Of a DNA stretch of 64,000 nt, positions 43,001 through 49,000 are shown in pieces (within the stretch, counting starts at the first letter, position 1; each line of letters starts with the position of its first letter). The notes beneath the pieces are model-generated. The model saw nothing but the letters and a program-made list of their open reading frames with translations. It was not told the DNA's origin and did no database searches. The stretch is from Antedon mediterranea. Taxonomy: Eukaryota > Animalia > Echinodermata. The DNA lies in the NCBI RefSeq assembly GCF_964355755.1, contig NC_092678.1:264422-328421 (forward strand). Reading direction: 5' to 3'. The position numbers and the translations under genes were made by a program.

Positions 43001-46000
43001 AGCCAAGTACCTACCTTGTATAATAGTACTACATTAAGTGAGAAGTGCAACTGGATAAGAAATGATTGTATGCGTTTAATTGCATTTCAACTTTGACTAC
43101 TACCACTTCAAGTATTACGCTTACAGCTAAGTCACATACTTAATTCATTCATTACCAAACTCAAATCCAGTTGCACATTTTCTCCTTATTATCAGTACAA
43201 CATTATTTTAACATGAATGCACTATTTGTTTAGACTGGTGCACAATAAAAAAACTTATATTTCTATTATACCAGAATTATATCTTGTGTTACATACCAGT
43301 TTCTTTGTTTCTAACTAATCTAACGTCAAGAACAGTCCGGTCCAATTTCTGCACCACTTTTTGAATCTAAAAAAAACATACAAAGTTATTTTAATTGTGC
43401 AGAAGAATGGAAACATCGTATAACAGTAGACAAATTACAGAATATTGAATAATAACCATCTGCAGTACAGTATTTTGTGTTGTACTCAGATGAATAAGCG
43501 TTGTTAGGTGGCAGCTCTACGACGTTGTTAGGTGGCAGCTCTACGACATGAAGGACTCACGAAGGAAAGATGGAGGTTGTCGTATCGTCCACACCTGTGC
43601 GCAATTCAGCCCAGTAGGCTGCGAGTTATTCCCCAAATTCATTTTAAGTTGATGCAATATCAAAATAAGTGCCCTCCTATAGTTTGTATACATCATCTAA
43701 TCTGCCCAACTAACAGTTGCACAAGAGTTACTTATTAAAGTTTACAGAAAAGGAATCGTAACATTTTGTGGCTGCAACAAATAATTCATCATCAAACGTA
43801 ATCTTCACAGGGTTCAATCGAGTAAATTTCATATTCAAACGAGTTTCAGCAACTTCTCATGAATTCACTTAAAATGTCTGGGATGCGATTTGGACTAGTG
43901 ACCCACACAACACCAACCACCCAAAGGGGAAATCAAACCCAACCAACAAATTGAATACAATAGTACCCCTTTACACTATCACCTCAAAACGCAGTTAAAC
44001 AAAGTCAACACACCAGGGCATTAAATTCAGTGATAATGTAAATGGGCTCAGAGGGTCACCCCAGTGCGTGTACACTGAGGAGCTGGATCAAATTGGTCCT
44101 GGTGAAGTCCTCCAGGTTAGTCAACGAGTCGGGTGGTATAGCACAGTTTAAGGCTATGTGTTATGCCTGACTTAATTCTGCACCTTGGTCATCATTGGGT
44201 AACAATTAACATGACAGATACTTACCATTAATTGATAGGACTTAAGTCTCAGGAAGTCTTGAGGAGGACTTCCAATAAGAACTTAAAATGAAGTTCATTA
44301 TTACTGCTACCATGTTTTAAGAGAATGTCCAAAAACAGACGCCCCCTTTCCCTAAAGCAGAGTGGTTCCACGAACCTGTGTCAACGTGAGCAGGACTTGT
44401 AGTACAAGAGGAACCATACACTGACCCAAGACATAAACAACTAGCAAGTCTAAAGCGTGGTCTTATTAAAAAGACACCACATTAATATCAAAAGAGAAAC
44501 AGCTGATTCCTGACTCCATAGCATAGTACGTTCAGGTGTAACCATAACAAAACACTTTGAAAACAATCAATACCAAAAATGACAAAATCTAAGATGCTAC
44601 TTAACAATAACATGCTACTCAACAAAAGTTGCAATGCTAAACGACGCTAAATTTCTAAAAAGTAAATACAGGTAAGTCTTCTATAAACAACTTAAGATCA
44701 AACTTGTGCTAAACTACTGTATGCTAAATTTCTAAAAGTAAAAAGCCTTCTATAAAAAATCAGGAAAATTTGTTAAAAGTTCAAAGCCATCAAGAAACAG
44801 AAGCAACATAAACTGTTTGTAAATATTCCCCCACACCCATTTCCCTCCCCCCCCCCACACCCATTTCCCGCCCCCCCCCCAATTTATTGGCTCTGTGCCA
44901 TAATTTAATAACGGCCACGCCTTTCCCAATCATCTTCATAAGAAGAGGGAGGAGGCCCGATGTACACCAAGTCATCATCAAAACGTGGCGACCTTCGAGA
45001 TCTTTTGTGTAAAAATTCATCAAAAGGAGAACGTGGCCGTCTGTGTCCAGACAATTCTCGCTCAAAAAGTCTCCACTCCTCTTCAAGAGAAGGCAATGGG
45101 GGCAAACTTGGTTCAGGTAGAAAGGGTGGGGCCACAGGAACCGCCATGAGATCTGGGATTACATCCCTACGAGGTGAGGAGCGCGAATCAATGTTTTCAG
45201 CACGTCTTCTTCTTGATCCACGTCTCCGTCTTCTTCTGGGGATTCCCTGTAATTCGGGGATTTCCAGTTTGCCTGGTGTTTTCCTTAAGTTGTCTTGTCT
45301 TTGTGGGATTCCAGATTTGTCATCTTTTGGTGGCACTCTCTGCGGTCCTTCTTTCTGTGGTTTGTTTTGTTTTTGAATGTTACCCTGCTTGGTTTGTGGT
45401 ATAGTCGCTTTCGGTTGTGTAATACCTGCATTTGTTCTGGTACGGGATAAGCCTGTTTGGGTTTTGTCACCGTTGCGATGTTCTCGTTTGCGTGTACTTG
45501 ATTTGTGTAATTGAGCACGACTTTCATTTTTAATTTGGATCTGTTTGATTAAATCTGCACTACAAGGAGGTTTATTTACTCGGAAATTCTTATCCGATGA
45601 CAAAGCCCTTTCTCTTTCTTCAAATTGGCCGAAAAATAGGTCTTTAGCGCTGTAAGTGGCTGAACGTGTGAAGAAATCGTAATCTCTAGGAGATATCCCG
45701 GTAGCGCGCACTACGTTATTTCTACGTGACAAGCCAGACCTTAATACAACTGTGGCCAGTTGATCAGAAATAAGTCTAATGCTTTCTCGCAAGAGAGAGA
45801 ATGCTTCAGGAATAACCGCCTGAGGAGCTGTAGGACTGGAGAGAAAAGACAGCAAAAATCCTGCCACATTCACTGCACGCATACCTTCTCTGGCTGCCCT
45901 CTCTACATTAGACAAACTCGTATCGAGTGACGCGCGTAATTTGTCGGCAAAGATCTGGTTGGATCCTTCGGGTATACCCTGGTCTTTACGCATTCTCCTC

Positions 46001-49000
46001 TTAGCTGCTGCAGGAATGGGAGCGGCTTGGATTACTGTACTAAATTGGTCGTCTGGAACTGGGAACGCACTGGTCAGTTTGCGAGGATTACTTTTGAGAG
46101 AATTACCTTTAGCCACTTTGTCTAAACGTTGAATTAAGCTGGGATGAATAGGTATGACAGGCTGGGGAATTGGGCCAGCAGTAGTAGAAAAAGGGATGTC
46201 CAAGAAGTCAAGCACAGTAGGCATTACATGGTTTACAAGATCTTGCAGATTAACTGAAGTTGATGTTTGGGAATTACCACCAATCAATCCTGCTTGTACC
46301 GGAAGGGGTACACTGGATGAGGCTAGAGGGGGAACCATGGGATTAAGAAGAGACGGTGGAGCCATAGAACTTGGATTGGATACAGGGGTGATACATATGT
46401 TAGCAATCGCCTCCTCTGTTAGACGTGTAACTTGACCTGCGACCTGATCTGTGACAAGTTTAACCAAATCATTTTTAATTTGTGGTTGTTGTGCTGGAGT
46501 TGGAATTGTGCCTCCTTGAAGCTTAGCCAAAACAAAAGACTTAACATAAGCTTGAACTTCCTCAAACATATCTAAGGGCCAGTGTTTGCACACCTCACAC
46601 GGTGAAGCCTGTCCACACGTACGACACAGGGGGCATAGGGCGTGTTTATCTACTTTAGAATTTGGAAGGGGGCCTCCACACCCAGTACAGACAGGATCTC
46701 TCGATGACATGGTCACTTCGGAATAACTTATGTAAGTCATTCTTGGTATCTTGTTGGTCTTTAAGCTGGAAACTTCAACCTTAGAACAAGAAAAACATCC
46801 TGGCAAACGTTTCAAACAAAATGTCATTGACCTTTGGCTATTGACCTTTGGGTTTGAACAAATGTAATAAATGAATACATTTGTGTTCCCAATCATGATC
46901 ACTTGATGCACAGTACAGTAGGTACAATCAATTTGGTTTTCCCTAAAAATAATCTTACCCACTACCAAAGTACAAACCACACCCCTTTTATAAATGTATG
47001 GATGTAATTGTGCTTGGAGGGGAGGAGGATGGGATAGAATTGGGTGGGGACAGCCTCAATCAAAGTGACATTCAAAATAATATTACCACTACCAAAGTAC
47101 AAACCACACCCCATTTATATGTTCATGAATGTAATTGTGTGGGGAGGAGGATGGGATAGAATTGGGTGGGGACAGCCTCAATCAAAATGATATTATCACT
47201 ACCAACCACCCCTCTTTTATATGTTCATGAATGTAATGGTGTTTGGAGGAGAGGAGGATTGGATAGAATTTGGTGGGTACAGGCTCATTCAAAATGATAT
47301 TACCACTACCAACCACCCCTCTTTTATATGTTCATGAATGTAATGGTGTTTGGAGGAGAGGAGGATTGGATAGAATTTGGTGGGGACAGGCTCATTCAAA
47401 ATGATATTATCACCAAAGTACCAACCACACCCCTTTTATATGTTCATGGATGTAATGGTGTTTGGAGGAGAGGAGGATTGGATAGAATTTGGTGGGTACA
47501 GGCTAATTCAAAATTATATTACCACTACCAACCACCCCTCTTTTATATGTTCATGAATGTAATGGTGTTTGGAGGAGAGGAGGATTGGATAGAATTTGGT
47601 GGGGACAGGCTCATTCAAAATGATATTACCACTACCAACCACCCCTCTTTTATATGTTCATGAATGTAATGGTGTTTGGAGGAGAGGAGGATTGGATAGA
47701 ATTTGGTGGGGACAGGCTCATTCAAAATGATATTATCACCAAAGTACCAACCACACCCCTTTTATATGTTCATGGATGTAATGGTGTTTGGAGGAGAGGA
47801 GGATTGGATAGAATTTGGTGGGTACAGGCTCATTCAAAATGATATTACCACTACCAACCACCCCTCTTTTATATGTTCATGAATGTAATGGTGTTTGGAG
47901 GAGAGGAGGATTGGATAGAATTTGGTGGGGACAGGCTCATTCAAAATGATATTACCACCATAGTACCAACCACACCCCTTTTATATGTTCATGGATGTTA
48001 TGGTGCTTGGAGGAGAGGAGAATTCGATAGAATTTGGTGGGGACAGGCTCATTCAAAATGATATTACCACTACCAACCACCCCTCTTTTATATGTTCATG
48101 AATGTAATGGTGTTTGGAGGGGAGGAGGATGGTTGTCCAATGCCAGTCACCAACCCCAAGAAACCAACAAGTATCTGAAAAAATACAATACTTTTCTCCC
48201 ACCAACCCTTTTTACACCCATTCCTATATGACTTCCCTGTATGATTACTACAAAAAGGCATAAGAATTCTTAGATAAATTCTCTACAGTGTGAACTTACA
48301 TCTCTTTCATCGACAGTTGGATGAAGTGACTTCAACATAATGGTGTTAGTTGGCTTAGTGTTGGTTGTACTTTGAGAAACGTGCCGCGAGTCTCGTCTAT
48401 CGCTCTCATAACTCTCATCTCGTCTCCGATCCTACAAAAGAAAGTTGTAAAATATCAAATAATATTAACACTATCACAAATCTATACCATTGTTATTATT
48501 GTTGTAGGAATTAGTCACTAAATCTCTGTCTACACTATCAAACTAGTTTGACAAACAAAGTGTGATATGCCCAAATATGGCAGTGATATGAAATCAACAT
48601 ACATTTTTAGTCACGTGCAACGCAACTCTACAGCTCACTATGTTGGTCGGTTGGATGGAAAACACTAATAACTCAAATTTGAGCATGCGACTGCAGCCAT
48701 GTATATGGCCTTGTTTTATACATTATTTTGTCACATAACGTTTGATAGTGTAGACAGAGATATAGTGGGCTAGCCTGTAGGACTGGTTTTGAATGGACAT
48801 TGTACCACAGAACAAATTTTGCTTACTTCTCTGCGTTTTCTTTCTTGTCGATCAGGAGAATCTCTTCGTCTGTCTCGCTCTCGCCTAGGGCTTCTGTCTC
48901 TATCATTTCTTCTGGAATTTTTATCTCTTGAACTTTGAAAATCACGCCGCGGACTGTCATAATGGTCGTCTCGTCTAGATGGACTTCTACCGTCTCGTCT

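Follow-up and report, generated by a model that had tools for sequence, protein, structure and literature searches.

A DIRS gag-like reading frame in an RBM5/10 intron of the crinoid Antedon mediterranea, probably spliced in frame to host exons

LAP2alpha domains stem from the ORF1 of DIRS1-like elements (PMC4495291), and every Xenopus DIRS-like family examined has a domain of this kind in its ORF1 (PMC9210276). The LAP2alpha isoforms cited are mammalian in the case of TMPO and eutherian in that of ZNF451 (PMC4495291), and not vertebrate-wide, as a first, sequence-only reading of the present locus had put it. RBM10 and RBM5 are under AS-NMD regulation in mammals (PMC10445532). This study concerns a window of 64,000 nt of Antedon mediterranea (NC_092678.1), in which a gag-type frame lies in an intron of an RBM5/10 gene. 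On balance, the explanation that we favour is that this frame is likely spliced in frame to the first coding exons of the gene, which would give a 941-residue hybrid, probably a domesticated one. All coordinates below are positions in the window, and the features are collected in Table 1.

Table 1. Features of the gag frame and neighbouring host exons, in the order of transcription.
Feature	Position	Strand	Basis
Host exon, Q/G/N-rich and then RD/RS-rich, holding the start ATG (49645) and joined to 48431 in X1	48827..49661	(-)	
Phase-0 host exon (RD-rich, start of RRM1), likely the upstream partner	48300..48431	(-)	
Tandem repeat array, unit 107-122 nt, occupying most of the intron 5' of the acceptor	46946..48130	(.)	
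Polypyrimidine tract and AAG 3' splice site, probably used	46780..46799	(-)	sequence and X1 contig ends
Intact DIRS-type ORF1 (gag)-like ORF, 624 codons and stop	44905..46779	(-)	frame translation
ATG aligned with the first Met of free-standing homologs; base A in position -3	46708..46710	(-)	homolog alignment
Cys/His motif C-x2-C-x12-H-x2-C-x2-C-x2-C-x5-C-x2-C-x2-W, residues 31-67, predicted zinc binding	46579..46689	(-)	
LAP2alpha-like helical domain, about residues 210-395	45595..46152	(-)	AF2 pLDDT 84 and structure matches
Basic Arg/Ser/Pro-rich tail	44908..45594	(-)	homolog comparison
Non-coding 3' portion of the exon between stop and donor, 679 nt	44226..44904	(-)	X1 contig 44226-44845
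AATAAA, candidate poly(A) signal	44883..44888	(-)	
G-rich 24-nt tandem repeat, 2.2 copies	44828..44881	(.)	
GTAAGT 5' splice site; probable partner host acceptor 43366	44220..44225	(-)	
Next host exon (remainder of RRM1)	43297..43366	(-)	

The host is likely an RBM5/10 splicing-factor gene, its closest match being the crinoid RBM5/10, and further exons extend to a stop near 34066 on the minus strand. The ORF sits in sense orientation in the 4933-nt intron that splits RRM1, so that the sequence-only reading was right both about the host gene and about an intact frame of more than 600 codons within it. A chance ORF is ruled out by the expectation for a frame of 624 codons at the local composition, about 2e-15; each of the five other frames holds 18-51 stops over the same stretch. 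The 23 codons ahead of the ATG at 46710 also lack stops and keep the frame of both upstream host exons. The length of the hybrid was computed as 273+44+624 = 941 aa, the value proposed earlier. The three ORF translations were absent from the protein collection. Elsewhere in the window, a SCAN/zf-CCHC gag region near 61-63 kb is the checked part of what had been described as two gypsy elements.

Homologs of the ORF were found in 31 matches, the best relatives being 38-52% identical over part of its length. Fifteen were looked up, and all eight with an organism name are from echinoderms, some falling into multi-member clusters. The ORF and echinoderm homologs of 500-800 aa have a common layout of finger, linker, helical domain and basic tail, and in a tree (input 26 rows; two rows of less than 150 aa left out) it joins one Antedon protein and two unnamed proteins with support of 100/100. 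Family-conserved columns are kept no better in the ORF (24 of 43) than in its closest relatives (28 of 42 and 26 of 43). The GARP/FYMINK ratio is 1.41 compared with 2.35 and 2.87 in relatives, an AT-ward shift in the expected direction but a weak one, as a three-way test gives the same bias in all three aligned sequences. Gag-related pieces also occur inside four unrelated echinoderm gene models. A profile search with the ORF-family alignment found nothing, and locus scans for relatives in viral contigs and metagenome contigs found none. The Cys/His motif, present in 16 of the 32 proteins tested (the ORF included), is common to echinoderm proteins resembling DIRS ORF1, which agrees with the finger type recognized at the outset. 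The ORF is likely the ORF1 (gag) of an old DIRS-like retrotransposon.

The other domain picked out by eye, a helical one resembling that of LAP2alpha, was also borne out, on a predicted model. The AF2 model of the core is mostly helical (pLDDT 84), and Foldseek matched it to 2v0x, the LAP2alpha dimerization domain (E 1.3e-4, prob 1.00, TM 0.58), the sole entry at E<=0.001. Structural alignment to 2v0x gave Z 13.4 and rmsd 3.5 with 173/205 aligned, the next-best match having Z 7.6, and among 48161 chains it alone reached Z>=8. The top Atlas clusters of the helical domain scored 0.95 and 0.91, with PF11560 on 25% and 14% of their members; a first Atlas search scored below 0.9 and is a lead only. 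The PF11560 profile itself matched neither the ORF nor any of 30 homologs or 23 alignment members, being carried only by the Atlas neighbours, and a Pfam search of the whole ORF gave nothing significant. A LAP2alpha-type fold is supported for the modelled core, at a sequence identity to LAP2alpha of 16%. The finger model (pLDDT 79) had no fold match among solved structures (best Z 2.8), which is not proof of a new fold, and sequence searches of solved structures with the ORF returned only weak zinc-ribbon or low-complexity matches. The two closest full-length homologs end before the final ~94 aa of the tail, and the last 98 aa of the ORF had no Pfam match.

The polypyrimidine acceptor (TTCTAAG/GTT) at 46779 was seen as first described, in phase 0 with exon 48300-48431; it is one of five strongly pyrimidine/T-rich AG sites inside the intron (host acceptor not counted). 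The GTAAGT donor at 44226 is the only one of its kind in the intron. Splicing at these sites was inferred from contig ends in one run holding spliced RNA (X1), whose type is a guess, none of the runs being recorded as RNA, and which covers introns too. Contigs 44891-46779 and 46750-47048 of X1 terminate where splicing into 46779 predicts, and contig 44845-44226 stops precisely at the donor. When a k=31 graph model was compared with X1 contig ends, 2/2 ends were exact for the host control intron, for the 48827/48431 exon join, for acceptor 46779 and for donor 44226 joined to 43366; exons 42558 or 41605 as partner of this donor gave 0/2 each and were rejected. As the upstream partner of 46779, exon 48827 fits the X1 ends equally well as exon 48300. 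Single contigs of the unspliced runs X2, X3 and X4 span 46779 intact, and those of X2 and X3 also span 44226. A SNP bubble or genomic repeat was rejected as the source of the X1 break at 46779, as the intron-side contig is 299 nt and not ~61, and X2-X4 are unbroken there. Acceptor 46779 is, judged by these contig ends, likely used in frame with the host; the AAG site had been proposed for this role, and the ends in this one run agree with it to the base.

The downstream end of the exon departs from what was first supposed. An immediate poly(A) signal had been claimed, and an AATAAA is indeed present at 44883-44888, but the exon does not simply end there, as an X1 contig continues to donor 44226. 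A simple alternative terminal exon is not what the RNA contigs indicate; they point instead to an exon that is at least partly an internal cassette of 2554 nt with a premature stop, closed by this donor. The X1 break at 44846-44890 overlaps the length-polymorphic 24-nt repeat beside AATAAA, contigs over the 44828-44881 region varying in length by 24 or 41 nt. With the cassette spliced out at 44226, the stop lies upstream of many exon junctions; the message is then a predicted NMD target, which argues against abundant protein.

Neither RT nor recombinase was matched in the two other stop-free frames of at least 60 aa on the sense strand of 43367-46779, a search that heavily decayed remnants would escape. 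No long terminal repeats were found beside the ORF, and the longest inverted pairs, sought as ITRs (~120 bp) or an internal complementary region, were only 25-27 nt at 72-81%. These frame and repeat searches agree with the early impression that pol, recombinase and terminal repeats are missing. In three unspliced runs of one sample, the depth of the ORF was 46 against 43-49 in neighbouring unique contigs, 29 against 28-45, and 290 against 230-334, with repeats reaching depths of thousands, although contig depth is, by the tool's warning, no copy number. With the same caveat on depth, these runs gave no sign of near-identical siblings (>=90% alike), many of which had been named beforehand as the mark of a recent truncated insertion. 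The ORF is present in two samples of two studies, and among the variants listed one falls within it, a synonymous change (n=1). In simulations, the frame survived neutrally in 14-49% of cases at 1% divergence, in at most 3.3% at 5% and in at most 0.05% at 10%.

It is against this background that a fairly young, truncated DIRS-like insertion has to be weighed, one turned into a leaky poison exon by splice sites present by chance, with a frame that is as yet undecayed and a protein that is inert. No ortholog of the ORF or the fusion was found in protein collections, no RBM5-gag fusion was seen among the protein matches found, and the Anneissia RBM5 cluster lists only protein isoforms X1 and X2; the paper listings covered, which excluded most subscription papers, named no work on exonisation of a DIRS gag by RBM5/10 or in any echinoderm. 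The missing ortholog, the premature-stop architecture and the neutral survival at 1% divergence are all compatible with youth, and the gag pieces in four unrelated gene models imply that functionless gag-host chimeras can arise. However, the depth data show no close siblings, no pol or ITR remnant accompanies the frame, the fusion is exactly in phase 0 across 23 extra open codons, and the ORF has flank-like full depth in one sample and is present in a second. A young insertion appears rather unlikely.

Still less probable is that the intron houses a stand-alone gene that was domesticated, with its own ATG at 46710 and a splice into 46779 that is incidental or supplies a leader. This ATG aligns with the start Met of the homologs, with A at -3, the entire ORF1 is kept, and part of the X1 signal comes from the intron side; but the X1 graph branches exactly at the acceptor, the contig on the intron side has the lower depth (6.85 against 42.5, depth being a poor measure), and the codons before the ATG stay open and in the host frame. 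It is very improbable that the cassette is kept solely as a poison exon that regulates RBM5/10 by feedback, its open frame a by-product of RNA constraint. In favour of this, it is an internal exon with a stop 679 nt ahead of its donor, and RBM10 and RBM5 are documented targets of AS-NMD (PMC10445532); but an early stop would suffice for a poison exon, which would need neither 624 open codons nor an intact finger and a modelled domain.

In the favoured explanation, a domesticated hybrid, the ORF, its position, its phase and the identity of the host are observed, and the LAP2alpha-type helical domain and Cys/His finger are predicted. Transcripts would, from the contig ends, be spliced into 46779 and, for some, out at 44226 to host exon 43366; translation would end at 44905 whichever way the exon ends. 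The hybrid would retain the Q/G/N- and RD/RS-rich N-terminus of RBM5, with the finger, the dimer-type domain and the basic tail standing in for the RRMs, zinc fingers, OCRE and G-patch. Messages rejoining host exons would be NMD-sensitive, their stop lying far upstream of many junctions, and inclusion would thus lower full-length RBM5/10 and ration the hybrid, while messages cut at AATAAA would escape NMD. With no other part of the element left, selection is presumed to hold the frame open. The exon could double as a poison exon of the splicing factor, and its domestication is probably the third, independent one of a LAP2alpha-type domain. A fuller version can be put forward only tentatively, namely that this is the third independent and first non-vertebrate domestication of a DIRS ORF1, in which a whole gag serves as a dual-use RBM5/10 cassette, encoding an RS-domain-gag hybrid and acting as a feedback switch by AS-NMD, the balance between the two depending on poly(A) versus re-splicing.

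Exonisation of the LAP2alpha domain was described from two mammalian genes. If true, an echinoderm parallel would mean that, across the deuterostomes, DIRS ORF1 has repeatedly been captured for use as an alternative exon. It would also put to the test the proposal that acceptor and poly(A) signal come with the element itself. The retained finger and tail would provide a handle on DIRS gag function and on what LAP2alpha inherited. Through the extra donor, the domestication of a transposon would be tied to the control of a conserved splicing factor by a poison exon, and a new protein could plausibly arise at low cost by this route.

The crinoid exon likely parallels LAP2alpha and ZNF451-L2a outside the vertebrates. 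It has the same predicted fold as mammalian LAP2alpha (2v0x), whose alternative last exon in TMPO is likewise one large DIRS1-like ORF1 exon joined to a host N-terminus and displacing host C-terminal domains (PMC4495291). The host gene and phylum differ, however, as does most of the sequence (16% identity); in the crinoid a donor lies downstream and the exon can be internal, its ORF, perhaps unlike LAP2alpha, retains the Cys/His finger and basic tail, and the protein and selection are shown for LAP2alpha whereas the crinoid hybrid is a prediction. In eutherian ZNF451-L2a the same domain was exonised independently, its use and that of host domains being mutually exclusive, but the exon is terminal, with a poly(A) signal and a reported dN/dS of 0.16 (PMC4495291), the crinoid exon having a candidate signal. 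DIRS-like tyrosine-recombinase retrotransposons share the LAP2alpha-type domain in ORF1 (PMC9210276) and the layout of the echinoderm homologs; unlike them, the crinoid ORF has no RT/RNase H, recombinase, ITR or ICR found nearby, is apparently single copy and is probably fused to a host exon. In CSB-PGBD3, an intronic transposon ORF used as an alternative exon gives a host-transposon fusion (PMC2268245), and intronic transposon ORFs also serve as alternative exons in the L1-ORF1 fusion isoforms Lyosin, NUP42-L1, USP4-L1 and L1-RFX5 (PMC12129022). These involve other transposon classes and first or last coding exons, with conservation shown, and none is described in PMC12129022 or in the abstract of PMC2268245 as an internal, stop-bearing cassette. 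Finally, in mammalian AS-NMD an alternative splice also puts a premature stop into the RBM5/10 message, although there by exon skipping (RBM10 exons 6 and 12; RBM5 exons 6 and 16; PMC10445532), whereas in the crinoid the stop would come with an included exon of 2.5 kb, transposon-derived and open over a long frame.

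The frame lying within the RBM5/10 gene is real: on the minus strand a single open frame of 624 codons runs from 46779 to its stop at 44905, a length with a chance of ~2e-15 at the local base composition, and the other five frames each carry 18 to 51 stops. A T-rich tract ending in AAG directly precedes 46779, in phase 0 with host exon 48300–48431, so that both the intact ORF of more than 600 codons and the acceptor proposed in the sequence-only reading were found. Mapping of the RBM5-like protein of the crinoid Anneissia japonica places host exons from 48431 down to ~34066 and the ORF in the intron that splits RRM1; downstream exon 35635–35898 shares 86% identity with that protein (best of 26 matches), the second match having 65% and a far weaker score, which makes a crinoid the likely source of this DNA. 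Other features of the window and of the host introns are collected below.

Coordinates of accessory features in the window
Position	Strand	Feature	Remarks
3–13606	−	Five C2H2 zinc-finger ORFs	Clustered
12719–13606	−	C2H2 ORF	Ends in Lys-rich segment; nearly identical copy near 26270–26635
16164–17852	−	Frame, presumably CXXC1/CFP1-like
32156–32596	+	Frame, presumably like mitochondrial ribosomal protein L46
38406–38470; 48517–48760		Short, very abundant repeat, two copies	In RBM5/10 introns; inverted ends; MITE-like by appearance
44883–44888	−	AATAAA	Candidate poly(A) signal, 3' of ORF stop
46480–46710	−	Cys/His motif region	Eight ligands; model pLDDT 79
49836–49908	−	tRNA-Asp call, anticodon ATC	Directly upstream of first coding exon; probably a tRNA-derived repeat, because depth is very high
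60968–62803	−	Gypsy-like gag region	SCAN and zf-CCHC domains, spread across several frames
62896–63246	−	Frame, presumably an hnRNP A1-type RRM
63636–63923	−	Further retroelement-like fragment	By eye; near window end

Evidence for splicing came from the ends of assembled contigs in four (X1–X4) of the five sequencing runs that contain the stretch; none of the five is on record as RNA, and X2–X4 are from one sample. In X2–X4 single contigs cross acceptor 46779, behaving like DNA. X1 holds spliced RNA, because one record has exon 35635–35898 exactly in its middle, and another departs from the window sequence at 48826, carrying on for 131 letters, its depth (61.7) reappearing at 48386 in the next exon. 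Contigs break where paths branch, and splice sites therefore predict where they end. For a control host intron (43297 to 42558) the predicted contig, 43324..42530, is what X1 shows. For acceptor 46779 the predicted ends, 46779 and 46750, were both observed in X1. A further break at 44226/44255, missed by the sequence-only reading, coincides with the sole GTAAGT of the 4933-nt intron and agrees exactly with splicing to host acceptor 43366. At least in part, the exon thus appears to be a 2554-nt internal cassette, in which 679 nt separate the stop from the donor. With 42558 or 41605 as partner of donor 44226, the predicted ends do not fit X1. Exons 48300 and 48827 fit equally as upstream partner of 46779. 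These contig ends, from one run that also covers introns, indicate that the ORF is likely spliced into the host message; no junction contigs occur among the X1 rows listed, and contig depth cannot rank isoforms. Of the terminal exon with an immediate poly(A) signal proposed earlier, the AATAAA is present, but transcripts also appear to run on to 44226. An X1 break at 44846–44890, near this signal, is not decisive for its use since the break falls partly on a 24-nt repeat within a length-variable stretch. X1 also has unspliced paths in host introns 42560–43294 and 41831–42192, around RRM1 and the RanBP2 finger, representing intron retention, pre-mRNA or DNA.

A Pfam search of the ORF gave no significant match, and the Pfam LAP2alpha profile, PF11560, matched neither the ORF, its homologs nor the alignment members. 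The LAP2alpha-like helical domain recognized earlier by eye was nevertheless recovered by structure. The model of residues 175–410 is good (pLDDT 84), and its sole Foldseek match at E ≤ 0.001 was 2v0x, the dimerization domain of LAP2alpha (E 1.3e-4, TM 0.58). It also stood alone among 48161 chains in reaching Z ≥ 8, at Z 13.4 with an rmsd of 3.5 over 173 aligned residues (7.6 for the next chain), although helical folds can reach comparable Z by chance. An Atlas structure search scored 0.95, the matched cluster having PF11560 on 25% of its members; Z gap, coverage and Atlas result agree on a predicted LAP2alpha-type domain. The model of the Cys/His motif matched no solved structure. In the available text of Abascal et al. 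(PMC4495291), the LAP2alpha domain derives from ORF1 of DIRS1-like elements, and that of PMC9210276 describes such a domain in every Xenopus DIRS-like ORF1 family examined. Residues 1–420, searched against 1.84 billion representatives, gave 31 matches, the best at 38–52% identity over part of the query; 15 were looked up, and the eight with an organism name came from crinoids (four) and sea cucumbers (four). Its members share an N-terminal Cys/His motif (in 16 of 32 proteins tested), followed by a variable linker, then a helical domain and finally a basic tail. Some clusters are multi-member (e.g., 9 in Apostichopus, 21 on contigs of up to ~8 kb), as would be expected of a transposon ORF, and we infer that the homologs may be linked to RT and recombinase. 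In a tree built from 24 of the 26 rows, the ORF clusters with one Antedon protein and two unnamed ones (support 100/100). Related gag pieces lie in frame in public gene models (P0002, P0003, P0006 and P0015) for ST14-like, HERC3 and NUP188 of Anneissia and a tyrosine kinase of Apostichopus; these are likely annotation chimeras, but the family could often act as an exon trap.

In agreement with the earlier reading, the two other stop-free sense frames of at least 60 aa around the ORF matched no RT or recombinase family, and the flanks hold no long inverted or terminal repeat: what is present is an isolated ORF1 rather than a DIRS element. Its contig depth in X2–X4 resembles that of neighbouring unique contigs (46 vs. 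43–49; 29 vs. 28–45; 290 vs. 230–334), with repeats reaching thousands, and offers no hint of siblings at least 90% alike, contig depth not being equal to copy number. In simulations a neutral frame survived in at most 3.3% of cases at 5% divergence, at most 0.05% at 10%, and 14–49% at 1%. That the frame is open without close siblings, pol or repeats favours selection, barring loss of the donor element. Against selection count the lack of an ortholog among the protein collections searched, an Anneissia RBM5 cluster holding isoforms X1 and X2 only, and family-conserved columns kept no better than in the closest relatives; the amino-acid composition test is weak, and the single variant listed, synonymous, carries no weight. 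A young neutral insertion, for which the missing ortholog and the survival at 1% divergence speak, is a rather unlikely alternative. A nested stand-alone gene, with the start Met of homologs aligning with the ATG at 46710, seems improbable beside the likely splicing into the host message.

On balance, we favour a domesticated RBM5/10–gag fusion as the more likely reading. Counted from the first host ATG (49645), it would have 273+44+624 = 941 residues, reproducing the earlier estimate, and exon inclusion would give this product whichever exon end is used. The predicted hybrid would join the host Q/G/N- and RD/RS-rich N-terminus to the finger, LAP2alpha-type domain and basic tail, would lack the RRMs, OCRE and G-patch, and by analogy with LAP2alpha might form a nuclear dimer. 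Under the usual junction rule, messages rejoining host exons would be NMD-sensitive, since many exon junctions lie downstream of their stop. Since mammalian RBM10 restricts itself and RBM5 through AS-NMD, according to the available text of PMC10445532, the cassette could also be a feedback switch of RBM5/10; that the exon is purely regulatory is, with a 624-codon frame kept open, very improbable.

Literature listings, which cover few subscription papers, contained no report of this RBM5/10 gag exon. The exon falls short of a complete DIRS element. Its proposed mode of action resembles that of LAP2alpha and ZNF451-L2a, with a looser likeness to CSB-PGBD3 (PMC2268245) and to L1-ORF1 fusion isoforms (PMC12129022), as these are described in the available text; it differs in its host gene, its phylum, the retention of the whole ORF1 and the presence of a downstream donor.
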